Origin: an uncultured Bacteroidales bacterium
GTDB taxonomy: Bacteria > Bacteroidota > Bacteroidia > Bacteroidales > UBA4417
Length of the DNA: 64,000 bases
Assembly: GCA_903864265.1 (NCBI GenBank)
Contig: CAIPFN010000157.1
Coordinates: 687 to 64,686, forward strand
Reading direction: 5' to 3'
Positions 3,365-23,964 of this stretch are shown here, piece after piece. The notes beneath the pieces were generated by a model, which was not told where the DNA came from, searched no databases, and was given only the letters and a program-made list of their open reading frames with translations. Every line of letters starts with the position of its first letter. Position 1 is the first letter of the stretch. The translations under genes and the position numbers were made by a program.

Positions 3365-3519
3365 ACTTTGGCGGAACAGTTTCTTTTATAGACTATCTTT
3401 TCTAATGAAAAAAAGATTGGTAAAGCAGGAAAAGCTTTGTCAACCTTTTTTTTGTAATGGGTATCATACTTGTCCTCTTTGCGGCTTATCCTTTTAGCCG
3501 TAAAGCCATTGCAAAAATG

Positions 3520-4038: not shown

Positions 4039-4631
4039 AAACCTAAGGTTAAGGGTGCGTTTGTACTGCAAAGATACTCTTTCGTATTAGCCCGACAGGT
4101 CCTGCTGCCTGATATTTTGGGTGGTCAAAAGTTTGCTTCCCCGGGCCGGGAACTGTATACCCGGCATGCGTTTTCCGGTTTATAAAGCAGGTGCGGCGTT
4201 TCCCTGCCCAGGCGCTGATAGAGCAAGGCTTCTCTTTTTGGTTTGTTTAAGGGTTTTTGTGATTCTGTTACTGCAGTATATGTTTTATTCCTGCGTGCTA
4301 TTCCTTATATTTTGTCCGGAAGCCGGAGCCCGGAAATCGTCGTCACTGAAAAAGGAATACCCCGAAGAAGCAGTGAAATACGGGTTTAAACGCAATGGAA
4401 CAGGACAGGTAAAAATTAAATCTGAAATTTGTGTTGATTCAGGAGGTCCGGGAAAATTATCAATTTTTCAACTACCTGTATCAGAGTGTAATAAGCTATG
4501 TGGGATCCGATGGTTGGAGGCATTTGGCATGAGAGTCGGAGGATATCAACTAAAGCGTGTTTATAAAAATAATTCAGGATATCCAAAAATAAGTTAAATA
4601 ATATTTGGGATTATCCTCATAGCGTATTATC

Positions 4632-4741
4632 TTTGTCACTTCCGCAGAGTTTCTCCAGAATTTATTTAGGAGGAATCCGGAACAAGTGACAACAAATTGA
4701 TCTATTATTTACTAAATTTGTAGATTCTGATTGTTGTCACT
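4632..4741. promoter_or_regulatory. three spaced copies of a TTGTCACT motif, including an 11-bp perfect inverted repeat that flanks a TAAATTTG box
   Basis: TTTGTCACT lies at 4632-4640. AGTGACAACAA at 4685-4695 is the exact reverse complement of TTGTTGTCACT at 4731-4741. The copies are ~50 bp apart. The 35-nt spacer between the inverted arms contains TAAATTTG (4713-4720), which matches the Bacteroidota -7 consensus TAnnTTTG. Confidence 0.35.
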
Positions 4742-5098
4742 GGAAAATGAGGGCCGGTTTTAATGCTAAAATCGGAACGCATCAGAAACACCTCAGGTAG
4801 CTTATTTTAAAATCCAGTTTTGTACGACTAGTTTTTCCTTGGTCTTCACGTATCGCTTATTTTCTTCAGATTTATTTTAATGCTTTTTGCTTAACGTTGT
4901 TTTTTTTTGTTGAATAAATGGGTGGTTCCTCAGGGAGTTCATTCATGAATGTCAGTTTTAGTTGTTGTTCTAAGTTTTGTGATCTCGTCAGGCTATTCTT
5001 TTTCTTGGTTATCTTTTATTGCGCTTTAGTTTAAAAAGTTCAGGTTTGTCTTTTGCTTCACTTCATGTAACATTTGTTTGTGTCAATTAAAACGAGGA

Positions 5099-5128
5099 TT
5101 GGTTTTTTTTGAAATCATTCTATTTTTG
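5099..5128 (+). promoter_or_regulatory. candidate Bacteroidota-type promoter for the giant ORF, with a T8 tract in the spacer
   Basis: TTG at 5099-5101 is followed 19 nt later by TATTTTTG (5121-5128 = TAnnTTTG). The spacer begins with a run of 8 T (5103-5110). The site is ~165 nt upstream of ATG 5292. Confidence 0.3.
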
Positions 5129-5291
5129 ACCAATCACGTTTCATTCTTTAAATTCCGGAACTCGCCATGCTCTTTTCCTAGTGTTACTATTATTAAAATG
5201 GTATTGAAAAACATTTTCCTTTCAGAGAATTTTAACCATAGATTTTCGGTTGTGGAAACCTACCCAAATAATAACTTAATACATCAGGATT

Positions 5292-8200
5292 ATGAAAAGA
5301 ATTTTACACTTTTCGACGACTTTGCTGTTTTTGTTTGCTTTTCTGAACAGCATTAATGCCCAGTATTGTACACCGACCTTTACCAACGGATGCGAAGGCG
5401 GCCAGGGAATCACTTCGTTCCAGTTTGGTACAATCAATCAGACGCCAATACCATGTACCGGAACGCCCAATTATTACCAGGATTTTACCAGCATAAGTAC
5501 CGACCTGGCAATGAACGGTATTTATGATATTGCAGTGCAGACTGCAAATAACGGAACGTATATTTCAGTCTGGATCGATTATAATTCCGACCAGACCTTT
5601 GATAACGGGAGTGAACTTGCATTGCAGTTTTTCTGCATGTATGCGGGCACAACTTCTACTTCGCTGACGATACCTTCTTCAGCTACCACAGGTTCCACCC
5701 GCCTCAGGATCGTGGCTTCCACATTCTCTTATCCAATCGATCCCTGCAGTGATCCGGGTCCTGGCAACTGCTCCGACTATTCGGTTAATATCATTGATCC
5801 GGTCAGCCCGCCCTCAGTCAATACACTGGCTGCGACAGGCATAACGGCTTTGAGTGCGGTACTGAATGGTACCATAAATGCCAATGATAATTTTACCCAT
5901 GCCGTATTCAATTATGGTACTGGCCTGAGCTATGGCATCAATGTAACGGGTAGCCCATGGATTTTAACCGGAAGCTCCAATATGGATGTAGCAGCCTCCA
6001 TTTCCGGACTCATCCCGAATACTACCTATCATTTCGAAACCGTAGGATATGGCTCGGGAGGTTACGTTTCGGGCGGAGATATGGAATTTACTACATTGTC
6101 AATTCCGCCCACGGTAAGCACCGAACCCGCTACCAATGTATCGGGCGTTTCAGCCATGCTAAACGGATTGGTTAATGCCAATAATCTGGCATCCGGTGTT
6201 ACGTTTGAATATGGATTGGACGATACCTATGGTACCACCGTGGATGGCAACCCCTCTACGCTATCAGGTTATACTCCGCAATTAGTCACATACTATTTAT
6301 CGGGGCTGGATATGAATACAACCTATCATTACCGGGTTGTCAGTTCAAATTCCGAAGGCGTTACTCCGGGTGCCGATATGACTTTCACCACCTTGCCCAC
6401 ACTCTATTGCATGCCGGTATTCTCAACCGGTTGTAATACCTATGAAATCGGTTTGACCTATTTTGAACTGAATACGATTTCCCAAACTATACCGTGCAGC
6501 GGAACGCCCAGCTATTACCATGATTATACATCCTTATCCACCGACCTGGCCATGAACGGCTATTACTCCATATCAGTTCAGGAGGGTGGGGTTTATGGTG
6601 CAAGCGTGACGGTATGGATTGATTTCAATCAAAACAATGTTTTCGATGGGCCAGCTGAAGTGGTTGGGAATGGCTATTGCGCCGGAAGTTCCTCTGCCGT
6701 AATTCAGATTGCAGTCCCGGCTTCAGTGCCAACAGGCGCTACCCGGCTGCGGATTATGGCATCCTATTTTGGTTATCCTGTCAATCCCTGCGGCACCTAC
6801 GACTATGGAAACTGTTCGGATTTCACGGTAAATATTACCGATCCGCTAACTCCTCCTTCGGTAAACACACTCGCAGCTACCGGGGTATCAGCTACTGAAG
6901 CTGTGCTGAACGGTACCGTTAATGCAAATGACTATGCCACCCAGGTTGAGTTTCACTATGGATTAGATTTAAGTTATGGGAACGTAATCCAGGGGATCCC
7001 GGGAACCATAACCGGTAATTCCAACACCGATGTAAGTGCTGCTTTAACTGGACTTATACCTAACGCGACTTACCATTTTGAAGCCGTAGGGTTTGGCCCG
7101 GGTGGTTATGTTTCGGGAGGCGATCTTATGTTTACAACGTTTGCCTTACTCCCTGACGCCACGACCGGGAGCGCAACGTATATTGCGGGCTCTTATGCCA
7201 CATTGAACGGAACCGTGAACGCGAATAATTCCTTAACAGATATATATTTCGAATATGGCCTGGACGATACCTACGGCACTACTGTCGCCGGGAATCCCTC
7301 CAGCTATTCCGGCTTTTCCATTCAAAACGTATCGGCACAAATTACCGGGCTGGAGCTGAACACCACCTATCACTACAGGATAGTAGGCTCTAATGCGGAA
7401 GGGACTTCCACAGGGGCAGATATGACGTTTACAACCTTGAATATACCTTATTGTATTCCTACCTATTCAACCGGTTGTGAAAGTTATAACATAGGGCTGA
7501 CCTATTTTGGGCTGAACACGATTTCTCAGGCCATTACCTGTGCGGGAACCCCAAGCTATTACCACGATTTTACGGCTTCTTCAACCGACCTTGCCAAAAA
7601 CGGGTACTATACCGTTTCGGTCACAGCAGGTTATGGATACCCTGCGTATCCTACCTCTCTAACCGTCTGGATTGACTACAATCATGACAATGTCTTTGAT
7701 CCGGCTACCGAAACCATAGGTAGTGTCAATTGTTACGGCATTGGTACTACCTATACTTTCCCGTTTACGGTTTCCGCATCAGCTTTAACCGGGCCGGCCG
7801 GGCTCAGGGCGATGACTTCCTATTCTGGGTATCCTACTGATCCATGTGGGTATAATAGTTATGGGAATTGCTCCGACTTCACCGTCAATATTCTTGATCC
7901 GGTCAATCCTCCATCCATAACCACCCTGGGAGCTACCGGAATATCCCCTGGTGGGGCTGTGCTTAACGGGGCTGCGAATGCGAATGATAATCTCACCCAG
8001 CTCGAGTTCCATTATGGTTTAGACACCGGTTATGGAAACATTGCTGCCGCGGTACCCTCAAGCGTGGCAGGAAACAGCAATACCGATGTGAGTGCTTCCA
8101 TTTCGGGATTAACCCCCAATACAACCTATAATTATGCATTGATCGGTTTCGGCGCAGGCGGTTATATCATAGGTGATAACATGGCTTTTACAACCAACGG

Positions 8201-11200
8201 CATCCCACCATCCGTGACTACCCTCAGCGCAACCAGTATTTCAGGCATTTCTGCCACACTTAACGGAACTGTGAATGCCAACAATTTACCGTCGACCGTT
8301 TCGTTCGAATATGGACTTACCGATTCGTATGGTTCAGCCATCGCCGGGAATCCTTCTGACGTTTCCGGATTTTATTCGCAGGCTATTACTTCTGCACTCA
8401 CCGGCCTGGCGTTGAATACCACCTATCATTACAGGATTAACAGCACCAATTCGGCAGGGACTTCCTATGGAAGTGACATGACTTTTTCGACACTGCCCAC
8501 TACATATTGCATTCCTGTGTACTCTACGGGTTGTAATAGCTATAACATAGGATTGACTTATTTTGGTCTCAACACGATTGCGCAGACTATTTCATGCGCC
8601 GGATCGCCAAATTATTATCACGATTTTACTTCTACCTCAACCGATCTGGCTAAAAACGGGTACTATTCTCTTTCTGTAACCGAGGGAGGCTATTCGGTGT
8701 ATTACAGAATATGGATCGATTATAATCACAACAATGTTTTTGATGTCGCAACCGAACAAATCGGACAAGGGTATTGCAGTGGCGGAACAACTTCCACAAT
8801 CTACTTTACCGTACCTTCAACCGTTCCCACCGGGGCCACCAGGATCAGAGTAATGTCCCGCTATTCTTATTACGGGTATCCTTCAGATCCTTGTTCACTT
8901 TCCGAAATTTATGGGAACTGTTCTGATTTCACCGTTAATATAATTGATCCTCTAGCTGCTCCATCAGTTACTACTCTGGCAGCTACAGGAATAACCACCT
9001 CGGGCGGTATTCTGAATGGTACAGTTAATGCCAATGGTATTTCCACCAGCGTTATTTTTCATTACGGAACTTCCCTGAGTTATGGGAATACTATTGCCGG
9101 TGTTCCCGGAACGCTTAGCGGAAACAGCAATACCGATGTAGCAGCCACCTTAACGGGATTATTGCCCAATACCACCTATAATTACGAAGTAGTTGGCTAT
9201 GGTGCCGGAGGCTATGTGTCAGGAGGGAATATGACTTTTACAACCGGAGCCATCCCGCCGACCGTAACCACCACTTATGCAACCAATGTTTCGGGCACTA
9301 CTGCTACCCTGATGGGGACCGTGAATGCGAATTATTTATCTTCAGATGTCACATTTGAGTATGGGCTAACCACCTCGTATGGCACAACTGTTTTGGGAAC
9401 TCCCACGCCGGTAACAGGAGGAAGCCCGGTCGGGGTATCCGGATTTGTTTCCGGTCTGGATCAGGGTGCCACCTATCATTACAGAACCGTCGGTACCAAC
9501 ACCAGTGGCGTGGCCACAGGCACTGATGCTACATTTACAACCCTTTCGCCGACTACTACACAAGCGGTTACTTCGGACATTCCTGTCGGAACCACGAATC
9601 AGCAGATTATAGGTATAGAGATACCTAACCTGAGCCCATCCAATTCTGTTACTGTAACATCCTTTACCTTTAATACCAACGGCTGTACCCAGGTTTCCGA
9701 TCTGTCGAGGGCCAGATTGTATTCAACCGGAACTTCCGGGGTATTCTCAACTGCACTTCAGTTTGGTTCCGACGTAACCAGTTTTGGTGCCCTGGGTTCC
9801 TCCTTTGTCATTACCGGGAGCAGAGCACTCTCCTCCGGCAACAATTATTTCTGGCTGACGTATGATATACCCTCCGGAGCCACGGCGGGAGATGTGGTTG
9901 ATGCGGAATGCACATCTGTTATGGCAGGCGGCAGTTCCTTGGAGCCGGCTATTACAGCGCCAGCCGGAACCCGGACGCTTACCAGCGTAAAATTCCTGAA
10001 TAGCCTTGCCGTCACCCAGGCATCAACGGCTGCTGTGCAGAAAAGCTCAACAGATAACGAGATTTTAATGCTGGATTTCAACGTGGGAGGGAGTACTGCA
10101 ACACTTCCGCTGAACAGTATTTTAGTTACCAACACCGGTTTCGACAGTGACATCGCCGCCGGCGGTGTGAAATTGTACCTTACCTCATCCCCTGTGTTTG
10201 CTACAACCAATCCACTCGGAACGGCGCAGAGTTTCGTTTCGGGAACCGCCACTTTCAGTGCATTGTCATTCGATTTGCCAACCGGTCACACCTATGTATG
10301 GATTACTTATGATATTGCCGCCGGGGCAATCGGTTATCATACCGTGGACGCTAAAATCACCCAAAATGCAATTGACGTTCAGGGATTGCTTTATCCTCCA
10401 ACCGAGCAGAACCCGGCAGGAAGCCGCTATGTTGCAGTCGCACCTCATGCGCTGCCTTTTACCGAAGATGCCTGGGCCACCATACCTCCAACGGACTGGA
10501 ATAAAATAGGTGGAAGTTGGTATAAATCAAGCACAAGTTATTCAGGGGGAACATCTCCGGAATTACGTCTTTCCTATAGTGGGGCTAACGCCGGGGATAA
10601 AATGATTACTCCCCCGCTAATAACCACCGGGTTGCCATACCTTGTACTTCGTTTTAAGTATTTCCTCGATGATTACGGCGTTGGTTGCACATTAAGAGTC
10701 CAGTCAAGCAGTAATGGCAGTACCTGGACTAATGAAGCATGGTCACGAGCTTCAGTCAATAATCAGAACTATGGGCCTTTTGATGTTGTAACAACCATAA
10801 GTTCAAACCTGAGCGGAGGTAATACCCAGGTGGCATTTGATGTAGAGGGAAACCCCTATTATATCGATAACTGGTATATTGATAATGTAAAGATATCAGC
10901 ACCAGAGCCTCCAACAGTCACTACCGCTGCAGTGACTTCCGTTACCCCCAATACGGCCGTATCAGGGGGAACTGTATTAGACGATGCAGCAAACGCAGTT
11001 ACGGCAAGAGGTATATGCTGGGGCACTTCCTTAAATCCTACCCTTTCCGACAATTTCACTACCGATGGGTCGGGACTCGGAACTTTCGTGAGTAACCTTA
11101 GCGGTCTCGTTCCGGGTAATACCTATCATGTGAGAGCTTATGCCACCAATGGAATCGGGACTGCATACGGGGCCGATCTTTCTTTTACCCCTGCTCCGCC

Positions 11201-17200: not shown

Positions 17201-20200
17201 AAAGAATGTGGATGTTTTTGCGAAACCGCTTCCCACCATTACCGGTCCGGCAATTATTTGCGGAACTCCCTCACCCGGAAATGTATATGTTACCGAAGCA
17301 GGTTGGGTAAATTATTCCTGGATCGTTTCAGGCGGTACCATTACAGCCGGGTCAGGCACAAATTCCATCACAGTGAACTGGACATCACCCGGAGCACGAA
17401 GTGTAAGGGTTGCCGTTACTGATGGAAACGGATGTACTTCAGATCAGGCCGTTTATAATGTCGATGTTTATGCTTTGCCCGTTCCGGTTATTAATGGAGA
17501 CGCGTCCATCTGTGCGCCGCCTTCTGCAGGTCATGTATATACCACTCAAGCGGGTATGACAGGATATGCCTGGAATATTTCAGCAGGTGGTATCATCAAT
17601 AGCGGTCAAGGTACCAACACCATCGATGTTACCTGGAATACAGTAGGGAGTCAGACAGTTGATGTTACATACACTGACACGCATGGTTGCACAGCTGCTT
17701 CCCCATCAGTAAAGCATGTCTCAGTCGATCTGTATTTCCCGGTGAGTATCACAATTGCTGCATCTGCAAATCCTATATGTACAGGAAGCTATGTCACTTT
17801 CACAGCCACTCCTGTCAATGGCGGGTCATCGCCTGTATATCAATGGATCGTGAATGGAATTAATGAGGGCTGGAATAGTTCGACTTATTGGTACATTCCT
17901 GTAAACGGAGATGTCGTTAGCTGTGTTCTGAATTCGAGTGTACTCTGTGCAACCAATGATCCGGCCACATCCAACGCTATCACAATGATAGTAAATACCC
18001 ATCCCGATGTGCCTGTAAGTGGTGGCGATATAACTGTTTGCTCAACTACATTGCCTGCTTTGCTGTCAGCTACAGCACCGGCAGGTAGCACGGTTGACTG
18101 GTATCACTATGCCAGTGGCGGAGGTGTGTTGTTGTCGAATAGTTCTGTTTATTCCACTTCATCAGCAGGCAGTTATTATGCAGAATCCAGGGATTTAGTA
18201 ACCGGCTGTACGAGTACCAGCCGAACCTTGGTTAATTTAACCATTAATGCTGCCGTTCAATATTTCATTGATTTAGATGGTGACGGATATGGCAACCCGG
18301 AAGTTTCTGTTATGGCCTGTGCACAGCCTTCGGGATATGTAACCAACAGTCTGGATTGCAACGATAATAATGCGAACATCAATCCGGGTGCTCAATACCT
18401 GGCTTATACAGGAAATGTTGGATTTACAAATTCTATCGTTTCTCCAACTACCGGATCGCCATATACACTCTTCCACTTTGAAGCCGATTATTTTGATGCC
18501 AACAATGCATTGCCCGGGGCAGGTTATCCCAGGCTGATACTGGATTACGAAGGAAACGGAAGTTATACCGATGCCAACGACCGTACAGTCATCATGACAG
18601 CTGCGGATCCTACGGATCTTACCACTTCCAACGGGAAGCGTTATTTTGTGGAGGTGAATGGCCTGACATACGGGACCAACTGGAAAGCCCGGATTATTGT
18701 AAGCGACGGAGTTAATTGTACTACCACCTTTGGCCCGTTCGATTACCCGGATGTGCTGCACGAACCCAACCTCTACCTCTTTGCCAACGATCTCAGCTTC
18801 AGTGTTCCTCATCCTGATCCTGCTCAAAACATCACTGTTTCTGCCGTGGTGCATAATGAATCGGATTTTGATGCCCAGAACTTTGTGTGCCACCTGATTA
18901 ATCAGTGGGATACCCTGATCGTTTATCCTGATGTAACGGTGGCTAATCTGCCGGCTCATCAGAGTACAACCGTGCAGTGGAACATTACCACCCCGGCTGT
19001 TCCTGCCTGGTGCCCGATGCAGGTAAAAGTGGATTACACGAATGTGATCAATGAAAACAATGAACTGGATAACTCGGCTGTGCGTCCGTTTGTAAACGGG
19101 AATTACCAGATCGCGGGCCGTATTGTGGTTCAATCACAGGTTTCGCCAGCTGTTTCTTACTCAAATCAGTATTATTATCTGTCATTGAGTGGCAGAGCCT
19201 GGTATACTGACCTGGCCGTTCAGCTCACCGATTCCACTGTGGCAGGTGCAACTGTCGATTTCACCATACTTGAAACAGGAGCTACCTATACAGGTTACAC
19301 CAATTCGTGGGGATATTTTAATATTTATTTCCCTGCTCCGCTTCCTCCGGGAGTATATCATATCATGGCTTCAGTCACCGATTTCACCTTAACAGGCGAC
19401 TTCACCAATGAGTTCACTATTCTTCCGCCAATCATTCCTATAACCAAACCAAACCTGACATTGGCTTACTGTCATTCTGTGGATGTGCAGCCTGTGAATC
19501 CGACCTATGATCCGGCCAATCCTGCGGATGTTACCCTGCTGGCTCATGTTGTGAATAACGGGAATGCTACGGCAATAGGGCCTATAGAAGTGAGGTTTAC
19601 CTACTCGACAGGAGGGACCTGGCTGGCACAATACAATGGCGACCTTGCGGCCGGCCATTCAGTGAACATTTCAACAACGGCACCTGTTCCGCCTCCGACA
19701 GCCACCCAGCTTGTGGCCTATGTCGATCCGAATGATCTGGTCCCCGAATGGAACGAATCTGATTGGGATAACTCAAGCATCGATAATATGTGCTATGATT
19801 TTCAGCCTGTGGGTATCTGCGGCGGTAATTTCTGGGGGACACATTGTGTGAATACCTCAACCAGCATTTATGTGGGCGTGAATGTATACCATCTTTATGA
19901 TGCCAATCCGTTGGATGTGAAATTTGAAGTCAGCGGGCCGGGAATTTCCGGCTGGCAGAATCTGGGTACAGGAACCTTGAATAACTTAACCCGGAATTGC
20001 TATTGCCCTTATGTGGTTGGAATACCTGATCAGTTCACATTTGCCGAAGTGGGCGTTTATACCTTCCGTATGACGGTTGATCCGGATAACGTTTACCCTG
20101 AGTGCGACGAGGATAATAATGTGCTCATCGTTACGGTCAATTCCATTTCCTGTCTGCCTCCTGAAACCAAACCAAACCTTGCATTTTATGGTTGCTATGG

Positions 20201-23200
20201 TCTTCAGGTACGACCAATTAATCCTTTCTATCCAGGCACTGCTACCCTGGTTGCCAATATTATCAATAATGGGAATGCAGTTGCCGTGGGCCCTATCGAT
20301 GTTCAGTTTACCTATTCGGAAGGAACATTCACAGGAACATATAACGGTAATCTGAGCCCAGGTCAAACGGCAGCTGTTACCGTTACTGCGCCTCTTCCGG
20401 TTCCGGCAACAACCATACTTACCGCTTTTATTGATCCTGCAAATACAGTTGATGAATGGAGCGAAACCGATAATACTGCTTCAGATAATATGTGCTGGGA
20501 ATTCCAGCCTGTTCCTCACTGTGGAATCAACTTCTGGTCGCATACCTATATTGTGGGTCAGTCGGCTACCCTGGCCGTTGGATTAAATGTTCAGCATCTG
20601 TACGACGCCAATCCTGTGAGGGTTAAATTCGAAGTCAGCGGACCTGGAATAGTTGGAACACAGAATCTTGGTTTTGGTTCATTAAACAATGTTTCACGGA
20701 ATTGCTGGTGCCCATGGGTTGTGGTTTTGCCAATGCCATTCACTTTCTTCGAAGCCGGGGTGTATCATTTTACCATGACCGCGGATCCGGATAATGTGTA
20801 CGCCGAATGCGACGAATCGAACAATGTGATGGAAGTTGATGTATCGGTATTAGATGGCGCGGATATGCGCATACTTTCGCAGTTCATTAATCCTACTCCT
20901 TTAAATCCGGGTGTAAATGATTCGGTATCCCTGATTGTTACCTACGAAAACATCGGAAATTCCAATGTGAATGATGCTATGAAACTGAGAGTGAAAGTAG
21001 ATAATACTGTCCTGGATGACATCTATCCCGTATATGGCCTGGCTACCGGCGATCATGCATCGGTTGCCATTCCTACAAAATGGGCCAGCAGCCTCCCGGG
21101 GGCTCATGTTATCAGGGCCATTATCGATGCCGACAACCAGGTGCCCGAAATTAACGAAAGTAACAATGAGGCAACACGGGCTATCATCGTCGGAGAATGC
21201 GCCAACCTCTACTTCCAGCTCTTTGCTTCCTCCAATTCCAATCCGGCACAGGGAGGTAATATCTTTATTAATTCCAGGATCGGAAACAACGGAGACGTGA
21301 ATGCTACGGCGAATGTGAAATTCTACTACATTGGTGATGCGAATGACACCATTCCGATAGGGCAAACCCCAATTTCTGTTTTTGCCCATGACAGCACTAC
21401 TATTATCATGCCTTGGGTGGTGGCTGACAATACCACCACCATAATAGGCAAAATTGTAGATGTGAATGTGCAGGAGTTTAATCCCGACGATAATGTGGCT
21501 ACTGCCATCTTAGGCGGCTTTACCATTTCGCTGACCCCTGTCTCGGCCTGTAACAATGAAAATAACGGTACACTTACTGCCGAGGCCACAGGAGGATCCG
21601 CACCTTATCTCTATATCTGGAGTAACGGGTATATTGGTGCAACTCTCACTGCCGGACCCGGAACCTATTCCGTTACTGTCACTGACAATGTAGGTTTGAG
21701 TAAATCTGCTTCAGGTACTATCGGGGAATTTGCCCCTATTGTTCCTACTATTTCCGGTCCCGCCATCGCCTCAAGCGGCTCAACAGGCAATGTTTACACT
21801 ACCGAGTCAGGAATGCACGGATATGCCTGGGCTGTTTCTGCCGGTGGAACCATTACCGGAGGAGGCACCGCAACGGATCATAGCGTGGTTGTAACATGGA
21901 ATGGAGGCGGGGCACAAAATGTCAGCGTCAATTATTTGACACCTCACGGATGTACAGCCTTAGCTGCAACCAATTATGCCGTTACTGTGAATGAAATTCC
22001 TGTGCCGGCCATCTTTGGCCCCGACAGTGCCTGCGCCAGTTCGACAGGGAATACATATCTGACAGAAAACGGGATGCACGACTATTCCTGGACGGTATCT
22101 GCCGGTGGTGTTATAACTGCAGGGGGAACCGCAAGCAGCAATTTCGCGGTTGTAACATGGAATACCCCCGGGATTCAAACGGTAAGCGTTTCGTATACAA
22201 ACCCGGATGGATATACTGCGGCATCTCCGACCAATTATCCTGTTACGGTTCTTCCTCACCCTGTGCCCACTATTACAGGACCTGTTGAAGTTTGCGTAAA
22301 TTCAACCGGCAATGTTTATACTACCGAGGCAGGAATGTCAGGGTATGTATGGACGGTTTCAGCGGGTGGTACCATAACCGGCGGGGGCGTTCCTTCAGGG
22401 AACTCCATAACAGTAACCTGGCTTTCGGCCGGATCAAGAACTGTAAGTGTTTCCTATACGGATACATATGGCTGCGTTACCGCAACACCAACCATTAAAA
22501 ATGTTATGGTTGATCCGTTGCCGGCCGCCGTTGCAGGCAATAACCGGGGAATATGCCTTAACAGCAGTACTACTCTTGGTGCAGCTCCAGTCGCAGGAAG
22601 TACTTACAGCTGGACTTCGAACCCGGAGGGGTTCTCATCAAACCTTGCCAACCCGACGGTTTCTCCGCAGGTAAATACCATCTACACGGTAATCGAAACC
22701 AATACCAACACCGGCTGTGTTAATAGTCACAGTGTGCTGGTAAAGGTTAATGCCATTCCGGCAGCTGTTGCCGGAGCTCCAAGGGCAATTTGCAAATATA
22801 CCAGCACTACCATAGGGGCTCCACCGGTAGCAGGCAGTATCTATAGCTGGACTTCAGTCCCGGTTGGATTCTCATCCCCTCTGGCCAATCCAACAGTAAC
22901 GCCATTGGTGACAACTACCTATACCGTGCTGCAAACAGCCATAGCTACCGGATGTTCCAACAGCAACAGCGTTGTTGTAACCGTTATCCCGATACCTGTA
23001 CCTACCTTAACAGGACCGACTCCGGTATGTAATAAATCGACAGCTAACACTTACACAACCGAGCCTTCCATGAACAATTATGTGTGGACCATACCCGCCG
23101 GTGCAATAGTTACTGCAGGGGGCACGACCTCAGATAATTACGTTACTCTGACATGGAACAGTACAGGCCTCAGGACAATCAAGGTAAATTACAGCAATTC

Positions 23201-23834
23201 CTATGGCTGTACCGCTGCCACTCCAAAGCAGTTTAATGTAATGGTAAATCCTTCGCCTGTGCCATCTATCATTGGCAGCAGTTCATGTTGCATCAATGCG
23301 AATGCAGTGTACTCTACAGTTCCTCTGCAATCGAACTATGTTTGGACAATCTCTCCCGACGGAATTATTAATAGTGGACAGGGAACCCGAACGGTGAATG
23401 TAATGTGGACATCTGCAGGAGCACATTGGATCGGGCTTAATTACACTAACGCCAGCGGCTGTTCGGCTCCATCGCCAAGTATTATGAATGTGACCGTGAA
23501 TACATGCAAGTCAGATGGCTTAGGGTCTGATTCTGTCAGCAATATCAATGCTCTGAATCCTCCTCTCGGCGGGTCCGATAAGTTTGACCTGAATGTCTAT
23601 CCGAACCCGAATGACGGTTCGTTTACAGCCATTATTTCAGTGCCTGAACCGGGTACTTACAGTCTGCAGCTCTATAGCAGCCTGGGTGTGATGGTCTACG
23701 AACTGAAAGATCTCTATGTGAAGGGGACCATCAGGCAGAAGATAGAAGTCAGGTATGTGGCTAATAGTATTTACACTCTTGTTTTAACTAACAAGGATCA
23801 GTCAATTCAAAAGAAGGTCTTAATCAGGAAATAA
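5292..23834 (+). CDS. giant (6,180 aa) modular cell-surface protein, T9SS cargo (adhesin-like)
   Basis: Uninterrupted 18,543-nt ORF. ATG 5292 is followed by signal peptide MKRILHFSTTLLFLFAFLNSINAQ. The body is built from repeated GEVED-like, FN3-like, PKD/Ig-like, CARDB-like and SprB-repeat-like modules. The last ~80 aa (..LNVYPNPNDGSFTAII..LQLYSSLGVMVYEL..) fit the type-A T9SS C-terminal sorting domain pattern. Confidence 0.9.
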   Translation: MKRILHFSTTLLFLFAFLNSINAQYCTPTFTNGCEGGQGITSFQFGTINQTPIPCTGTPNYYQDFTSISTDLAMNGIYDIAVQTANNGTYISVWIDYNSDQTFDNGSELALQFFCMYAGTTSTSLTIPSSATTGSTRLRIVASTFSYPIDPCSDPGPGNCSDYSVNIIDPVSPPSVNTLAATGITALSAVLNGTINANDNFTHAVFNYGTGLSYGINVTGSPWILTGSSNMDVAASISGLIPNTTYHFETVGYGSGGYVSGGDMEFTTLSIPPTVSTEPATNVSGVSAMLNGLVNANNLASGVTFEYGLDDTYGTTVDGNPSTLSGYTPQLVTYYLSGLDMNTTYHYRVVSSNSEGVTPGADMTFTTLPTLYCMPVFSTGCNTYEIGLTYFELNTISQTIPCSGTPSYYHDYTSLSTDLAMNGYYSISVQEGGVYGASVTVWIDFNQNNVFDGPAEVVGNGYCAGSSSAVIQIAVPASVPTGATRLRIMASYFGYPVNPCGTYDYGNCSDFTVNITDPLTPPSVNTLAATGVSATEAVLNGTVNANDYATQVEFHYGLDLSYGNVIQGIPGTITGNSNTDVSAALTGLIPNATYHFEAVGFGPGGYVSGGDLMFTTFALLPDATTGSATYIAGSYATLNGTVNANNSLTDIYFEYGLDDTYGTTVAGNPSSYSGFSIQNVSAQITGLELNTTYHYRIVGSNAEGTSTGADMTFTTLNIPYCIPTYSTGCESYNIGLTYFGLNTISQAITCAGTPSYYHDFTASSTDLAKNGYYTVSVTAGYGYPAYPTSLTVWIDYNHDNVFDPATETIGSVNCYGIGTTYTFPFTVSASALTGPAGLRAMTSYSGYPTDPCGYNSYGNCSDFTVNILDPVNPPSITTLGATGISPGGAVLNGAANANDNLTQLEFHYGLDTGYGNIAAAVPSSVAGNSNTDVSASISGLTPNTTYNYALIGFGAGGYIIGDNMAFTTNGIPPSVTTLSATSISGISATLNGTVNANNLPSTVSFEYGLTDSYGSAIAGNPSDVSGFYSQAITSALTGLALNTTYHYRINSTNSAGTSYGSDMTFSTLPTTYCIPVYSTGCNSYNIGLTYFGLNTIAQTISCAGSPNYYHDFTSTSTDLAKNGYYSLSVTEGGYSVYYRIWIDYNHNNVFDVATEQIGQGYCSGGTTSTIYFTVPSTVPTGATRIRVMSRYSYYGYPSDPCSLSEIYGNCSDFTVNIIDPLAAPSVTTLAATGITTSGGILNGTVNANGISTSVIFHYGTSLSYGNTIAGVPGTLSGNSNTDVAATLTGLLPNTTYNYEVVGYGAGGYVSGGNMTFTTGAIPPTVTTTYATNVSGTTATLMGTVNANYLSSDVTFEYGLTTSYGTTVLGTPTPVTGGSPVGVSGFVSGLDQGATYHYRTVGTNTSGVATGTDATFTTLSPTTTQAVTSDIPVGTTNQQIIGIEIPNLSPSNSVTVTSFTFNTNGCTQVSDLSRARLYSTGTSGVFSTALQFGSDVTSFGALGSSFVITGSRALSSGNNYFWLTYDIPSGATAGDVVDAECTSVMAGGSSLEPAITAPAGTRTLTSVKFLNSLAVTQASTAAVQKSSTDNEILMLDFNVGGSTATLPLNSILVTNTGFDSDIAAGGVKLYLTSSPVFATTNPLGTAQSFVSGTATFSALSFDLPTGHTYVWITYDIAAGAIGYHTVDAKITQNAIDVQGLLYPPTEQNPAGSRYVAVAPHALPFTEDAWATIPPTDWNKIGGSWYKSSTSYSGGTSPELRLSYSGANAGDKMITPPLITTGLPYLVLRFKYFLDDYGVGCTLRVQSSSNGSTWTNEAWSRASVNNQNYGPFDVVTTISSNLSGGNTQVAFDVEGNPYYIDNWYIDNVKISAPEPPTVTTAAVTSVTPNTAVSGGTVLDDAANAVTARGICWGTSLNPTLSDNFTTDGSGLGTFVSNLSGLVPGNTYHVRAYATNGIGTAYGADLSFTPAPPPTVTTTAATGLTGTEAVLNGIINANLGSVAVSFDYGLTVSYGSSVAGVPTTVTGSTDTPVSANLSGLQPNTTYHFRAKGLPAGGVAVYGDDFTFTTLAIPPTVATLAATYISGVSAVLNGTVIANNATSAVSFEYGLTTSYGSTIAGVPPGITGNTVQSAAVTVLGLAMNTTYHFRIVSTNAGGTSYGDDMSFTTLITPYCIPAYTTGCNSYNIGITHFELSSINQAVTCTGTPNYYHDFTSSSADLYQNGAYVISVTGGYWDTYVTVWIDYNQNNVFDGASEVAGHVYMTNPGATYTIPFTVSTASSTGPTRLRAMSNYYWPSYNYPADPCILTETYGNCSDFTVNILSPLTPPTVTTNAASGITATESVLNSTVNANGNPTNAVFKWGLTASYGNSVTGVPAVVTGTTDTPVTASLSGLTPNTTYHFQAVAWGIGGTVNGSDVTFATTAIPPTVVTGTTSNIQMTIATLSGTVNPNNLSSTVSFEYGLTTAYGSTISASPSSLAGYSVQSVTGSLTGLTLNTLYHYRIVSTNSAGTSVGDDMTFTSAPTLYCIPYFSTGCNTYSIGLTYFGLNTISQTISCSGSPSYYHNYYPTSTDLNKNGNYSISIAEGGGYGIDVTVWIDYNQNNVFDGGVELVGQGHCSGGSTATIPLTVYASALTGSTGLRILANYDGDGYVSNPCGSYSYGNCADFMVNILPAVTPPSVTTNAASSITAATAVLNATVNGNGNATNVIFNYGLTSSYGSTVAGSPSPVTGSTDIAVSASLTGLLANTLYHYQAVGSGIGGTVYGSDVTFTTAMIPPTVTTTAASAIAGVSAYLNGTVDPNNLPSSVSFEYGLTASYGTTVDGNPISVSGSGSQAVSAFITGLTMNTLYHYRVISTNSAGTSLGDDMTFTTLTTLYCIPSYQYGCSDPWYMGLTSVDLNTISQPIPCTGTPPYYHDYTSSSTDLALNGSYSLIVHAGGGYGIYINAWIDLNHNNYFDGAGEIVAQGHCNGGSSLTMTLTVPGTALTGATRIRVMSNYDGYGYPSDPCGWNYFGNAADFSVNIMSPGPPIVSTGVATDLNISSATLNGLVNPNYFSSTISFDYGLTASYGSSIAGTPSPLSGGVNTAITAALTGLTANTTYHFRISSTNSAGTSLGDDVTFTTTPTPVFIVSGGGTYCSNGSGLSVGLSGSDVNATYQLYKNAVAFGSTVSGTGNPLSWDNLSDGTYTIQAITSAGNTWMIGNAVISSYNNPVSVYIYASAYTICPGTSVTFTAYQSNGGATPAYQWVVNNVNVGSDSYQYSYIPNGGDEVKCILTSNIACPTGNPATSNTITITVSSPVPSISGSDVACAGSSGNSYSTEFGMSNYVWNVSAGGTITSGGNGYYYVTVTWNTTGAQTVSVNYTNGYSCTAATPTVKNVSVNVMPTPTISGSATVCAGSTGNIYTTESGMSGYSWAVSGGTITAGSGTSQITVTWNSSGAQTVSVNYSNGCTPASPTIYNVTVNPISTPTITGPVTACVNSSGNVYSTEPGMSSYNWSVSSGGTITAGGSSADNTVTVTWNASGSRSVHVSYTNTFSCGVSAPGVLNVTVNPLPVPTITGPTVICDIPSTVNTYTTEAGMTGYTWAVSAGGTVTAGGTAADNSITITWTALGAQSVSITYTSSNGCTPSGPMVKTVNVYALPVPAITGPATVCGIPSTGNLYYTETGMTGYSWTVSAGGTITSGSGHYIYVTWNTAGAKTVSVTYADHGCNPVSPTVKNVDVYDRPVPVITGPTAICGTPSPGNVYSTGAGMANYAWTVSGGAITAGSGTNSITVNWTSPGARTVRVTVTDGNGCTSNQVVYNVDVYALPIPFITGDASICEPPSAGHVYATQSGMTGYVWTVSAGGTVTAGGNASDNSITVTWTALGAQSVSVTYADVNSCVPASPTVKSVNVYNLPVPTITGPAPVCGIPSSGNFYHTEAGMTGYSWAVSAGGTITSGGSGNYIYVTWNTAGAQTVSVTYADHGCNPVSPTVKNVDVFAKPLPTITGPAIICGTPSPGNVYVTEAGWVNYSWIVSGGTITAGSGTNSITVNWTSPGARSVRVAVTDGNGCTSDQAVYNVDVYALPVPVINGDASICAPPSAGHVYTTQAGMTGYAWNISAGGIINSGQGTNTIDVTWNTVGSQTVDVTYTDTHGCTAASPSVKHVSVDLYFPVSITIAASANPICTGSYVTFTATPVNGGSSPVYQWIVNGINEGWNSSTYWYIPVNGDVVSCVLNSSVLCATNDPATSNAITMIVNTHPDVPVSGGDITVCSTTLPALLSATAPAGSTVDWYHYASGGGVLLSNSSVYSTSSAGSYYAESRDLVTGCTSTSRTLVNLTINAAVQYFIDLDGDGYGNPEVSVMACAQPSGYVTNSLDCNDNNANINPGAQYLAYTGNVGFTNSIVSPTTGSPYTLFHFEADYFDANNALPGAGYPRLILDYEGNGSYTDANDRTVIMTAADPTDLTTSNGKRYFVEVNGLTYGTNWKARIIVSDGVNCTTTFGPFDYPDVLHEPNLYLFANDLSFSVPHPDPAQNITVSAVVHNESDFDAQNFVCHLINQWDTLIVYPDVTVANLPAHQSTTVQWNITTPAVPAWCPMQVKVDYTNVINENNELDNSAVRPFVNGNYQIAGRIVVQSQVSPAVSYSNQYYYLSLSGRAWYTDLAVQLTDSTVAGATVDFTILETGATYTGYTNSWGYFNIYFPAPLPPGVYHIMASVTDFTLTGDFTNEFTILPPIIPITKPNLTLAYCHSVDVQPVNPTYDPANPADVTLLAHVVNNGNATAIGPIEVRFTYSTGGTWLAQYNGDLAAGHSVNISTTAPVPPPTATQLVAYVDPNDLVPEWNESDWDNSSIDNMCYDFQPVGICGGNFWGTHCVNTSTSIYVGVNVYHLYDANPLDVKFEVSGPGISGWQNLGTGTLNNLTRNCYCPYVVGIPDQFTFAEVGVYTFRMTVDPDNVYPECDEDNNVLIVTVNSISCLPPETKPNLAFYGCYGLQVRPINPFYPGTATLVANIINNGNAVAVGPIDVQFTYSEGTFTGTYNGNLSPGQTAAVTVTAPLPVPATTILTAFIDPANTVDEWSETDNTASDNMCWEFQPVPHCGINFWSHTYIVGQSATLAVGLNVQHLYDANPVRVKFEVSGPGIVGTQNLGFGSLNNVSRNCWCPWVVVLPMPFTFFEAGVYHFTMTADPDNVYAECDESNNVMEVDVSVLDGADMRILSQFINPTPLNPGVNDSVSLIVTYENIGNSNVNDAMKLRVKVDNTVLDDIYPVYGLATGDHASVAIPTKWASSLPGAHVIRAIIDADNQVPEINESNNEATRAIIVGECANLYFQLFASSNSNPAQGGNIFINSRIGNNGDVNATANVKFYYIGDANDTIPIGQTPISVFAHDSTTIIMPWVVADNTTTIIGKIVDVNVQEFNPDDNVATAILGGFTISLTPVSACNNENNGTLTAEATGGSAPYLYIWSNGYIGATLTAGPGTYSVTVTDNVGLSKSASGTIGEFAPIVPTISGPAIASSGSTGNVYTTESGMHGYAWAVSAGGTITGGGTATDHSVVVTWNGGGAQNVSVNYLTPHGCTALAATNYAVTVNEIPVPAIFGPDSACASSTGNTYLTENGMHDYSWTVSAGGVITAGGTASSNFAVVTWNTPGIQTVSVSYTNPDGYTAASPTNYPVTVLPHPVPTITGPVEVCVNSTGNVYTTEAGMSGYVWTVSAGGTITGGGVPSGNSITVTWLSAGSRTVSVSYTDTYGCVTATPTIKNVMVDPLPAAVAGNNRGICLNSSTTLGAAPVAGSTYSWTSNPEGFSSNLANPTVSPQVNTIYTVIETNTNTGCVNSHSVLVKVNAIPAAVAGAPRAICKYTSTTIGAPPVAGSIYSWTSVPVGFSSPLANPTVTPLVTTTYTVLQTAIATGCSNSNSVVVTVIPIPVPTLTGPTPVCNKSTANTYTTEPSMNNYVWTIPAGAIVTAGGTTSDNYVTLTWNSTGLRTIKVNYSNSYGCTAATPKQFNVMVNPSPVPSIIGSSSCCINANAVYSTVPLQSNYVWTISPDGIINSGQGTRTVNVMWTSAGAHWIGLNYTNASGCSAPSPSIMNVTVNTCKSDGLGSDSVSNINALNPPLGGSDKFDLNVYPNPNDGSFTAIISVPEPGTYSLQLYSSLGVMVYELKDLYVKGTIRQKIEVRYVANSIYTLVLTNKDQSIQKKVLIRK
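5364..9548 (+). repeat. four tandem coding supermodules (period ~1,041-1,056 bp)
   Basis: Units start at 5364, 6405, 7449 and 8505 (codons YC.P). Each unit is a Cys-rich GEVED-like domain (YC.P....GC ... C.G.P.YY.D.T ... WIDYN.N..FD ... DPC...YGNCSDF.VNI) followed by two ~100-aa FN3-like modules (..LNGTVNAN...V.FEYGL...YG....NTTYH(Y/F)....FTT). Confidence 0.85.
11799..14650 (+). repeat. three further supermodules of the same type
   Basis: Units start at 11799, 12858 and 13908. The last unit has only one FN3-like module, and its terminal motif is GNAADFSVNI rather than GNCSDF.VNI. Confidence 0.85.
15171..17729 (+). repeat. ten tandem ~84-88-aa PKD/Ig-like coding modules with a nested ~770-bp higher-order repeat
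   Basis: Module starts are ~15171, 15430, 15672, 15932, 16195, 16449, 16701, 16965, 17219 and 17471. The consensus is P.P.I.G...C......Y.T..GM..Y.W.VS.GG.I..G......V.W...G...V.V.Y....C.......V.V. Modules 5/6/7 closely match modules 8/9/10 at a ~770-nt offset. Confidence 0.85.
19422..20850 (+). repeat. two tandem ~243-aa units, each a pair of CARDB-like domains
   Basis: Units start at 19422 (LPPIIPITKPNLTLAYC..) and 20151 (CLPPETKPNLAFYGC..). Both contain ..NNGNA.A.GPI.V.FTYS.., ..DNMC..FQPV..CG.NFW.. and end ..DPDNVY.ECDE.NNV... The domain endings E.NE.NN/ECDE.NN are typical of CARDB. Confidence 0.75.
21731..23507 (+). repeat. second array: 3 PKD/Ig-like modules, 2 x ~79-aa modules, then 2 more PKD/Ig-like modules
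   Basis: PKD-like starts are ~21731, 21993 and 22254. The PLPAAVAG../AIPAAVAG.. pair starts at 22514 and 22751 (237-nt period). Two more PKD-like modules start at 22988 and 23260. A single SprB-repeat-like module precedes the array (CNNENNGTLTAEATGGSAPYLYIWSNG.., ~21514-21730). Confidence 0.8.
23580..23831 (+). other. T9SS C-terminal sorting domain (type-A-like) of the giant protein
   Basis: KFDLNVYPNPNDGSFTAIISVPEPGTYSLQLYSSLGVMVYELKDLYVKG...YTLVLTNKDQSIQKKVLIRK. This is the beta-sandwich CTD pattern (YPNP..G, ..v.iy...G..v). Confidence 0.75.
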
Positions 23835-23852
23835 CAAAGAATAAGGGAAAAA

Positions 23853-23891
23853 TCCAGGTGGTTGAAATGCAATTGCTTTCAACTGCCTGGA
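23853..23891 (+). other. imperfect stem-loop between the giant ORF and the GLUG gene
   Basis: TCCAGGtgGTTGAAA-tgcaattgc-TTTCAACtgCCTGGA gives 6 + 7 bp with a 2x2 internal mismatch. It starts 19 nt after the stop. No T tract follows, so it is not a canonical terminator. Confidence 0.35.
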
Positions 23892-23964
23892 TGAAGTACC
23901 GGGATCCTGGTTGATCAGAGAAGAGAAAGACAAACAATTGCAGCAAATCCTTAAACTAAAAAAA

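Follow-up and report, generated by a model that had tools for sequence, protein, structure and literature searches.

A single reading frame of more than six thousand codons, found in a 64-kb stretch of DNA (64,000 bases; hereafter the window) from an uncultured Bacteroidales bacterium, raises the question of whether so long a frame is a genuine gene and, if so, what kind of protein it encodes. The giant gene with its parts, its upstream region, and the hairpin and GLUG-motif gene that follow it all lie on the + strand.

A giant gene under purifying selection

The frame runs uninterrupted from the ATG at 5292 to the stop at 23834, exactly as a preliminary description of this DNA had reported, and its 6,180 codons account for 18,543 of the 64,000 bases (29% of the window). 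The predicted product is a 642-kDa protein with a pI of 4.2 and 108 Cys residues, built from ~59 tandem modules.

The high repetitiveness of this protein, and a source that is evidently a metagenome-assembled contig of 74.5 kb, might suggest an assembly artefact, through collapse of repeats or a chimeric join, or else a decaying pseudogene left open by chance. However, the internal DNA repeat copies are only 60–83% identical, too divergent for collapse to be likely. Collinear orthologues were found in four other uncultured Bacteroidota contigs (L001, L002, L003 and L048, the last obtained from Trout Bog samples of anoxic lake hypolimnion), and aa ~4200–5400 are collinear in all four of these independent assemblies. 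Moreover, ten tandem PKD_6 units pair off one to one, by position, with orthologous units of L002 (63–86% identity). In each of the seven segments compared with L002, from aa 1–369 to aa 5742–5896, pN (0.13–0.26) is far below pS (0.60–0.79), by which measure the frame is under purifying selection relative to this orthologue. At the base composition of the window, a run of 6,180 codons would be free of stops by chance with a probability of ~1e-144. An artefact or pseudogene is thus strongly disfavoured, to the point of being scarcely credible: judged by collinear orthologues, repeat divergence and pN far below pS, the gene is real.

Two antisense ORFs (18273–19133 and 20901–21389) were rejected as genes, as they lie inside a part of the frame that is conserved at 75–88% amino-acid identity. 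The GC3 of the giant gene is 0.44, as compared with 0.49–0.54 in housekeeping neighbours, a difference that low expression or a separate history might explain. Upstream is a 694-bp, AT-rich intergenic region (4598..5291; GC ~0.40) that presumably holds the promoter and 5′ leader; a promoter scan found nine sigma-70-like sites in it versus 3.1 expected, none of them decisive, and no Rfam family matched it. Rfam and tRNA scans of the whole 64-kb window were both empty.

Signals for T9SS export

Both ends of the protein carry predicted export signals. A Sec signal peptide (aa 1–23; 5292..5360), proposed earlier, can be read directly from the sequence as MKRILHFSTTLLFLFAFLNSINA/Q, that is, MKR, a hydrophobic core and INA followed by Q, with cleavage predicted at INA/Q in keeping with the Q-rule for signal-peptide cleavage in Bacteroidetes (PMC5837995). 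The junction, ..(K/N)AQYC.., is also present in the orthologues L002, L003 and P0142. A lipoprotein was considered and rejected: Cys26 is not in a lipobox, and its counterpart in every other GEVED-like module is likewise the first of the conserved Cys.

At the other end, a type A T9SS C-terminal sorting domain (CTD; aa 6102–6180; 23595..23831), likewise anticipated by the preliminary description, scores above the curated cut-offs of both PF18962 (33.3 bits; cut-off 27) and TIGR04183 (26.7 bits; cut-off 23) over aa 6102–6178, and shares 60% identity with its counterpart in the L048 orthologue. The last 121 aa gave no match to the type B models (PF13585 and TIGR04131) even at E≤1, and no type C CTD was matched in the giant protein. 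Preceding the CTD is a Ser/Gly/Asp/Asn-rich linker (aa 6071–6101; 23502..23594), which likely contains the predicted PorU cleavage site, given a PorU motif of T/E/D/N followed by G/A/S (PMC10202324). With a signal peptide and an above-cut-off CTD at its extreme C-terminus, the giant protein is, as far as its sequence tells, a type A cargo.

Two further CTD-bearing proteins are encoded in the window, and a T9SS machinery in the host is implied by these three genes; none of the core genes (SprA/Sov, PorV, PorU and GldK-N) was found within the 64 kb. Type A cargo follows a pathway of PorV, which is its general shuttle, PorU and A-LPS, and cognate PorP/SprF gene pairs occur only with type B cargo (PMC10202324, PMC12618676). 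Indeed, the flanking ORFs showed no match to the PorP/SprF family. The absence of such a partner, which had been presented as a peculiarity of the locus, was therefore reproduced, but it is what a type A CTD leads one to expect and is no anomaly.

N-terminal arrays and central cassette

To count modules, HMMs built by us from the internal repeats were combined with Pfam and NCBIfam scans, and homology of the protein was searched region by region. The N-terminal half begins with array A (aa 24–1419; 5361..9548), in which a 150-aa GEVED-like module followed by two FN3-like modules occurs four times. Three further FN3-like modules (aa 1873–2167; 10908..11792) and array B (aa 2169–3121; 11796..14654), which holds three GEVED-like plus five FN3-like modules, lie farther downstream. 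The totals of seven GEVED-like modules (PF20009, 310 bits) and 16 FN3-like modules (with matches to Pur_ac_phosph_N, PhoD_N and fn3) agree with those counted by eye beforehand.

The GEVED-like module contains six Cys, and its name-giving motif reads G-N-C-S-D. Its AF2 model is a beta-sandwich (pLDDT 92.9), for which the best PDB match is a domain of endo-beta-N-acetylglucosaminidase HS (TM 0.72); the other PDB matches are Ig-like or CBM-like, and the Foldseek matches include the Vibrio cholerae biofilm scaffold RbmA at a low TM of 0.38. A PDB sequence search with the GEVED-FN3-FN3 supermodule returned nothing usable. In fibrillar adhesins, GEVED is a stalk domain (PMC10952558).

Between array A and the three FN3-like modules is a cassette that had escaped the preliminary description. 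It starts with two BNR_assoc_N/CBM93-like modules. The first (aa 1427–1547; 9570..9932) matches PF14873 at 62.8 bits versus a cut-off of 25; the second (aa 1579–1694; 10026..10373) is divergent and was not detected by Pfam on its own, being recognized by its likeness to the first (34% identity; BLASTP E 1e-9). PF14873 corresponds to CBM93, the sialoglycan-associated CBM of NanH (PMC9472817). The cassette ends with a choice-of-anchor-J-like (MAM/cleaved-adhesin-like) domain (aa 1695–1872; 10374..10907), which reached 22.1 bits (E 1.4e-4) against NF038128, below the cut-off of 30. A word-indexed search with this domain alone found no relatives, yet an exhaustive HMMER search found 1,042. Among ten of them that were sampled, seven match NF038128 over essentially its whole length, and three of these seven score above its cut-off, with up to 75 bits.

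C-terminal modules

Two Ig-like modules (14655..15158) follow array B, an unassigned one at aa 3122–3204 and one with Cys and a YQW..VN motif at aa 3205–3289; this pair has sub-threshold matches to PKD_3 (19.7 bits) and BiPBP_C (15.1 bits). Next are the ten tandem PKD_6 modules (aa 3290–4146; 15159..17729), and then a second YQW..VN module (aa 4147–4232) plus an Ig_7 ‘CHU_C-associated' domain (aa 4238–4319; 45.8 bits versus a cut-off of 27.3), together at 17730..18248. The two Cys-containing YQW..VN modules, both noticed earlier, are 51–59% identical to each other. Three more PKD_6 modules (aa 5479–5741; 21726..22514) and a final two (aa 5897–6070; 22980..23501) bring this family to the 15 that had been estimated, found by PF19408 as 15 stretches with 333 bits.

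Several other modules lie between these PKD_6 blocks. A putative metal-binding motif of the MopE type, D.DGDGYG...C.D.N (aa 4326–4368; 18267..18395), scores 17.3 bits with PF11617, under its cut-off of 27; its earlier assignment is nevertheless backed by many MopE-repeat (PF11617) proteins that match it at 50–70% identity. It is followed by a ~125-aa domain (aa 4369–4495; 18396..18776) that is 65–77% identical to L001, L002, L003 and L048 and has no Pfam, NCBIfam or PDB match; it is predicted to be all-beta, and an AF2 model of aa 4320–4500 contains strands only (pLDDT 51). The CARDB-rich region (aa 4496–5410; 18777..21521; CARDB, 127 bits) would comprise about seven CARDB-like domains, two of them Cys-rich, as had been proposed; all seven stretches appear at E≤1, but only four at E≤0.01. 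A carboxypeptidase-regulatory-like module within it (CarboxypepD_reg; aa ~4646–4700) can be retained from the preliminary description as a likeness of 18–19 bits, short of the Pfam cut-off of 32.3. A lysyl-oxidase-like enzyme, suggested by 13.6–16.4 bits (E 0.007–0.05), was rejected, since the match falls on a Cys-rich CARDB-like module. Then comes a module (aa 5411–5478; 21522..21725) with the one SprB repeat already recognized by eye (aa ~5418–5446; PF13573, 36.2 bits versus a cut-off of 28). Finally, two ~78-aa Cys-containing modules (aa 5742–5896; 22515..22979), defined by their internal likeness (55–60% identity), matched nothing in Pfam or NCBIfam. These two modules, the ~125-aa domain and the Ig_7 domain had also been overlooked.

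PDB sequence searches with the family-less domains of the protein yielded nothing usable. Wherever a module could be assigned or modelled with confidence, it is of beta-sandwich type, and Pfam and NCBIfam scans revealed no catalytic family anywhere in the protein.

With its SprB repeat and a size class equal to that of SprB, the protein could be taken for a gliding-motility adhesin, driven over the cell surface in the manner of SprB or RemA; RemA is a mobile adhesin with a type A CTD (PMC10202324, PMC12618676). We regard this as improbable. The type B CTD and the adjacent PorP/SprF gene are both absent, the SprB repeat is a single one in 6,180 aa, and no gld or spr gene is present in the window. 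In addition, the relatives of the protein are Bacteroidales MAGs, and Bacteroidales are mostly non-gliding anaerobes.

Conservation and variation among orthologues

Comparison with the orthologues divides the protein into two parts. The C-terminal two thirds are positionally conserved, with 70–88% identity to the closest orthologue, and the CARDB-rich region (79% identity to L002) ranks with the best-conserved stretches. The N-terminal GEVED-FN3-FN3 arrays differ between orthologues in number and order; for example, array B has no collinear counterpart at its position in L002. Consistently, dN is 0.26–0.32 in N-terminal segments versus 0.14–0.15 in the PKD_6 and CARDB parts. The gene is a clean example for the evolution of proteins of this kind: the predicted proximal stalk stays fixed, and the distal array is shuffled. 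Nearly all relatives of the giant protein in databases are fragments from contigs of 2–4 kb, and a metagenome scan with its C-terminal 446 aa gave no matches.

A downstream GLUG-motif gene

Directly after the stop of the giant gene is a strong RNA hairpin without a T-run (23852..23892), at which a terminator scan found nothing; the 127-nt spacer folds with −35.2 kcal mol−1 (z=−3.9), and none of 200 shuffles was as good. The spacer leads to a gene (23962..26649) for an 895-aa GLUG-motif protein (Glug, 64.6 bits) with a signal peptide (..KA/Q) and a probable type A CTD (TIGR04183, 20.1 bits, E 4.7e-4, below the cut-off of 23), which is probably, on these sequence features, a second T9SS cargo. 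A metagenome scan with this protein found a 38%-identical GLUG homologue in L048, where it immediately follows the giant orthologue. A distant relative keeps the pair of giant and GLUG genes and no other neighbour, and the GLUG-motif protein probably works with the giant one. Upstream of the giant gene are a PD40 propeller gene (also present in L002, at 83% identity), a HEAT-like ORF and ORFs with no family match.

A model of a surface fibril

The giant protein is probably a non-catalytic giant fibril of the cell surface, similar in kind to fibrillar adhesins, and from its modules we infer an adhesin function. The preliminary description had arrived at a giant T9SS-delivered surface adhesin or matrix protein, with which the signal peptide, the type A CTD, the stalk- and lectin-like body and the lack of a catalytic domain all accord.

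As a fibril, the preprotein would be exported by Sec and cut after INA, upon which the new N-terminal Gln would be cyclised as the Q-rule predicts, and disulfides would form in the Cys-rich modules in the periplasm. The CTD would direct the protein to the SprA/Sov translocon, and PorV would carry it to the PorU/PorZ/PorQ attachment complex, where PorU would remove the CTD and either link the new C-terminus to anionic LPS or release the protein. In an anchored protein, the PKD_6 arrays and CARDB region of the conserved C-terminal two thirds would form a cell-proximal stalk, from which the faster-evolving N-terminal part with its variable copy number could extend outwards by as much as ~200 nm. 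This distal part, which comprises the GEVED-FN3-FN3 supermodules plus the cassette (two CBM93-like modules and a choice-of-anchor-J-like domain), would bind glycans or particles, for example other cells, polymers, and host or detrital surfaces.

The last step at PorU also accommodates a released extracellular matrix or biofilm scaffold, that is, a protein secreted by T9SS and freed of its CTD but shed instead of being linked to A-LPS. The T9SS signals are equally compatible with such a fate: release in place of anchoring is the outcome for a significant subset of type A proteins (PMC10202324), and RemA foci can vanish and RemA has been found in spent medium (PMC12618676). An acidic protein rich in Asp/Asn motifs (WIDYNxNNxFD) would moreover suit Ca-bridged matrices, and a biofilm scaffold, RbmA, is among the structural matches mentioned above. 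However, no sequence feature separates release from anchoring, and a fixed C-terminal stalk with a variable distal end fits an anchored fibre better; a shed scaffold is therefore rather unlikely.

The surface fibril may be part of something larger, a possibility that we raise tentatively and consider doubtful at present: the giant and GLUG-motif proteins could constitute a conserved two-gene module for an undescribed T9SS surface appendage of anoxic-freshwater Bacteroidales, whose ~200-nm stalk would capture glycans. If so, the variable array of six-Cys GEVED-like modules and the CBM93/anchor-J cassette would be presented on the stalk, and the targets would be acidic glycans (sialic-acid-like or others) carried by particles or partner cells.

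The claim that the architecture is undescribed holds in so far as it has never been named; its domain families are all known, though, and collinear orthologues, unannotated so far, exist in at least four other MAGs or metagenome contigs. No new mechanism is involved, and the protein, though large, is an ordinary representative of a known kind. Its value lies elsewhere: a major share of the contact of Bacteroidota with their surroundings is made by giant T9SS cargo proteins, which are mostly unannotated, and metagenome assemblies usually fragment their genes. Here the signal peptide, the mapped modules, the CTD and a conserved partner gene are all in place, and because of this completeness the gene can serve as a reference for annotating fragments.

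Comparison with known systems

Compared with the giant protein, RemA of Flavobacterium johnsoniae is smaller by a factor of about four, has a different type of lectin and is not known to carry GEVED, PKD_6, CARDB or CBM93 modules. The two have in common a Sec signal peptide and a type A CTD, with which secretion of either would depend on PorV. Both can do without a cognate PorP/SprF gene, and both are non-catalytic with a carbohydrate-binding-type module within repeats (PMC10202324, PMC12618676).

SprB of F. johnsoniae resembles the giant protein as a giant, repetitive, T9SS-delivered surface filament of similar size class, but its CTD is of type B and the gene for its cognate SprF lies directly downstream (PMC12618676). 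On all three marks of the SprB type the giant protein differs: it ends in a type A CTD, its gene has no PorP/SprF neighbour and, instead of being dominated by SprB repeats, its body is made of other modules with one such repeat.

The gingipain/HagA cleaved-adhesin and choice-of-anchor-J proteins form a broad group, common among type A cargo proteins of the T9SS in Porphyromonas and other bacteria, to which aa 1695–1872 would belong; the giant protein has a single copy, at 22 bits against a cut-off of 30, and no protease domain. NanH/BTSA-type sialidases share the CBM93 module, which matches the first copy in the giant protein at 62.8 bits and in NanH positions the enzyme on sialylated glycans (PMC9472817). 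In the giant protein, by comparison, the module is duplicated and embedded in the stalk, and no sialidase or other catalytic domain follows.

CshA-type adhesins (Streptococcus gordonii and many phyla) are anchored by LPXTG, whereas the giant protein would be anchored by its T9SS CTD. The ligand-binding NR2 domain that precedes GEVED in CshA was not found by Pfam and NCBIfam scans, whose libraries may omit an NR2 model, and there is no room for an NR2-like domain because the signal peptide or an FN3-like module directly precedes each GEVED-like module. The two share the GEVED family, repeated stalk domains and architectures that arise through domain shuffling (PMC10952558). As in fibrillar adhesins, the bulk of the giant protein consists of stalk modules (seven GEVED-like, 16 FN3-like, 15 PKD_6 and ~7 CARDB), and its candidate adhesive domains are one CBM93-like module above threshold plus a second copy and the choice-of-anchor-J-like domain below it.

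Domain map of the giant protein

The open frame at 5292..23834 (+), which occupies 29% of the window, runs for 6,180 aa without an internal stop in both the ORF listing and the translation, as claimed in the preliminary description; at the base composition of the window, the chance probability of a frame this long is ~1e-144. As internal DNA repeats of the gene are just 60–83% identical to one another, repeat collapse is unlikely. The product (642 kDa, pI 4.2, 108 Cys) is rich in Thr, Ser, Gly, Val, Asn and Tyr.

Domains were mapped via Pfam and NCBIfam scans of the two halves and of ten sub-segments, plus HMMs built from internal repeats. A signal peptide, read from the sequence (MKRILHFSTTLLFLFAFLNSINA, followed by Q; aa 1–23), precedes array A (aa 24–1419; family scans and repeat HMMs), which consists of four supermodules, each with one 150-aa GEVED-like and two FN3-like modules. 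Next are a BNR_assoc_N module (aa 1427–1547; PF14873, 62.8 bits versus a cut-off of 25), a divergent second copy (aa 1579–1694; 34% identity to the first, E 1e-9) and a divergent choice-of-anchor-J-like domain ending in WYIDNVKIS (aa 1695–1872). Repeat HMMs then place three FN3-like modules (aa 1873–2167) and array B, with three GEVED-like and five FN3-like modules (aa 2169–3121), followed by two Ig-like modules with sub-threshold matches (aa 3122–3289), ten PKD_6 modules (aa 3290–4146; family scans and repeat HMMs), a YQW..VN Ig-like module found by internal-repeat comparison (aa 4147–4232), an Ig_7 (aa 4238–4319; 45.8 bits), a MopE-like motif (aa 4326–4368) and a conserved domain with no Pfam or NCBIfam match (aa 4369–4495). 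[quoted passage not shown] Neither a type B or type C CTD nor any catalytic family was detected in the protein by these scans.

The HMM totals exactly equal the 7 GEVED, 16 FN3-like and 15 PKD_6 modules counted earlier by eye, and the type A CTD, the approximately seven CARDB-like domains and the single SprB repeat were likewise recovered. Two other proposals held in part: the MopE-like motif is supported by database relatives but its profile match is sub-threshold, and the carboxypeptidase-regulatory-like module does have a match, again below threshold.

In an alignment of the seven GEVED-like copies, five Cys positions are invariant and a sixth is found in five copies, thus each copy carries five or six Cys. 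An Asp/Asn-rich WIDYNxNNxFD motif is present, and G-N-C-S-D stands in place of the eponymous motif. The alignment was confidently modelled by AlphaFold2 as a beta-sandwich (pLDDT 92.9, pTM 0.89), for which the top PDB match in Foldseek was a domain of endo-beta-N-acetylglucosaminidase HS (9x1i_A; TM 0.72, E 2e-7), the others being generic Ig-, PapD- or CBM-like sandwiches. The GEVED family was defined on fibrillar adhesins of the CshA type, as a domain of their stalk; domain shuffling gives rise to these adhesins (PMC10952558).

The segment of aa 1427–1872 had been overlooked in the preliminary description. PF14873 is listed in CAZy as CBM93, the module with which the NanH sialidase of Tannerella binds carbohydrates (PMC9472817). 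The adjoining domain at aa 1695–1872 has no Pfam match, and a word-indexed search found no relatives; an exhaustive HMMER search retrieved 1,042 representative ones, of which 470 reached E<=1e-10. Of ten relatives that were sampled, seven match NF038128 (choice-of-anchor J) across essentially the whole of that model, three of these above its cut-off (up to 75 bits), and one sampled relative additionally matches Cleaved_Adhesin and Reelin-B weakly. The domain itself scores 22.1 bits (E 1.4e-4), under the cut-off of 30. Because both the relatives and the domain match NF038128, it was named choice-of-anchor-J-like, which denotes a transitively supported resemblance and not curated membership.

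Orthologues and sequence conservation

When aa 1420–1880 were searched against the GTDB species genomes, three clear orthologues emerged: L001, from a Bacteroidota MAG (ELA284), where the entire 10.6-kb contig is one open frame, and L002 and L003, from Bacteroidales MAGs, with ORFs of at least 5,712 and 5,897 aa, respectively (lower bounds, as both frames extend past the stored locus). Most remaining database relatives are fragments on 2–4 kb contigs; a 3,640-aa relative (P0142) has a smaller module set. Overall module order is common to the three orthologues and the giant protein, and the cassette of two CBM93-like modules and the choice-of-anchor-J-like domain is retained in all, with three copies in L003 (3665–21355 (+)). 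An unrelated 4,727-aa protein at another locus (L006, 4541–18721 (+)) carries three BNR_assoc_N-like modules. The CBM93-like repeats at L003 and L006 therefore mark the module as one inserted recurrently into giant Bacteroidota proteins.

Against L002, pN (0.13–0.26) is below pS (0.60–0.79) in all segments compared, thus indicating purifying selection throughout. Residues ~3200–5900 are collinear with L002 at 57–88% identity (mostly 70–88%), each of the 13 PKD_6 units covered there has its own positional orthologue, and a two-unit internal PKD_6 duplication (79–86% identity) predates the split of the two genes. Those N-terminal segments that were compared evolve about twice as fast (dN 0.26–0.32 versus 0.14–0.15), and module number and order there differ among orthologues: for example, four GEVED-like modules precede and three follow the cassette in the giant protein, while six precede it in L002. 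Judged from these comparisons, the gene is real and conserved, with evidence for an orthologue family that combines a fixed stalk with a shuffled distal array.

A conserved downstream partner gene

The next gene (23962–26649 (+), from ATG 23962) encodes an 895-aa protein with a signal peptide ending in KA before Q (Q-rule), GLUG motifs (64.6 bits) and a probable type A CTD slightly below cut-off (20.1 bits, E 4.7e-4). A metagenome scan with this GLUG protein found a further locus (L048; contig TBL_comb47_HYPODRAFT), which going by its contig name apparently derives from the Trout Bog Lake hypolimnion. At this locus, in a distant relative, a giant frame of 3,275 aa or more is collinear with aa 4200–6180 (45–78% identity), its terminal CTD sharing 60% identity with that of the giant protein, and a homologue of the GLUG protein (38% identity) is encoded ~170 nt further downstream. 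As the remaining neighbours are not shared, the giant and GLUG genes constitute a conserved pair. Isolate and contig names among the relatives (ELA, AM-2014, TBL hypolimnion) hint at a habitat in stratified or anoxic freshwater lakes.

Directly after the stop of the giant gene is a strong, near-perfect 16-bp hairpin (23852–23892 (+)) with no T-run behind it; the spacer has a folding energy of −35.2 kcal/mol (z = −3.9). The terminator scan called no terminator at 23852–23892, and the hairpin could be a U-tract-less terminator or an attenuator between the two genes. Both genes have a GC3 of 0.44, versus 0.49–0.54 in seven other sampled genes of the window, at similar overall GC; this may stem from codon usage typical of low expression, from amino-acid composition or from a different history.

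Genomic surroundings

The setting is ordinarily chromosomal, with rplM, rpsB, tsf, the dcw cluster from mraZ to ftsZ, and MutS2 among the genes. The giant gene is preceded by an unusually long (694 bp), AT-rich intergenic region (4598–5291) with nine sigma-70-like hexamer pairs versus 3.1 expected, TAnnTTTG-like strings by eye (for example, near 5121 and 4718) and no Rfam match. Also upstream, 2324–3364 (+) encodes a secreted PD40/TolB-like beta-propeller protein; a counterpart with 83% identity sits in the syntenic position upstream of the L002 orthologue, and none lies upstream in L003. The 719-aa ORF at 14–2173 (+), probably running past the window start, has no Pfam or NCBIfam match and bears M14-carboxypeptidase-like strings by eye (PNHNPDG, GHDNNRDF).

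Elsewhere, 30422–31660 (-) encodes a third candidate T9SS cargo, a 412-aa protein that matches BNR/sortilin-like families weakly and carries a type A CTD (PF18962 36.8 bits, TIGR04183 26.5 bits). The gene for an AI-2E family transporter (27143–28240 (+)) is immediately followed by one for a radical SAM/SPASM enzyme (28249–29253 (+)). A 266-aa ORF without Pfam match (39469–40269 (-)) lies between ftsA and murC, the usual position of FtsQ in the dcw cluster. A 1,066-aa TPR-CHAT (caspase-like) protein (60770–63970 (-)) adjoins the MutS2/Smr gene (58311–60740 (-)); CHAT-TPR proteins are at times tied to defence or signalling.

Predicted export and comparison with known systems

The sequence shows a signal peptide, an all-beta modular body without enzymes and a type A CTD, and at this level the protein fits a type A T9SS cargo. 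The protein would be exported via Sec and cleaved before Gln24, which would become pyroglutamate, then translocated via SprA/Sov and passed to PorV; PorU would remove the CTD, and the protein would be moved to A-LPS or released, which is the established route of type A cargo (PMC10202324, PMC12618676, PMC5837995). If C-terminally anchored, the conserved PKD_6/CARDB part would form the stalk nearest the cell, with the variable GEVED-FN3 arrays and CBM cassette shown distally for binding; when extended, ~59 modules of 3.5–4 nm each would span roughly 200 nm. From the kinship with CBM93, the predicted ligand would be a glycan, possibly an acidic one.

Family scans of the ORFs found no PorP/SprF, T9SS core or gld genes within the 64-kb window, in agreement with the earlier claim that no PorP/SprF-like gene is adjacent. 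This had been treated as a contrast; it is instead the rule, as no cognate PorP/SprF gene is expected for a type A CTD. The giant protein is similar in size to SprB, yet it lacks all three SprB-type features: the CTD is not type B, no SprF gene adjoins, and SprB repeats do not make up the body. Nor is it a member of the CshA family, as no NR2-like domain was found in the Pfam and NCBIfam scans. In its mode of working it may be likened to RemA-type or fibrillar adhesins. By their profile matches, all building blocks that could be assigned belong to known families, and giant proteins several times this size are already on record in bacteria (10.1101/2023.11.21.568195); what is added here is a complete module map, a conserved orthologue family with a putative fixed stalk and shuffled distal array, and a conserved GLUG partner.
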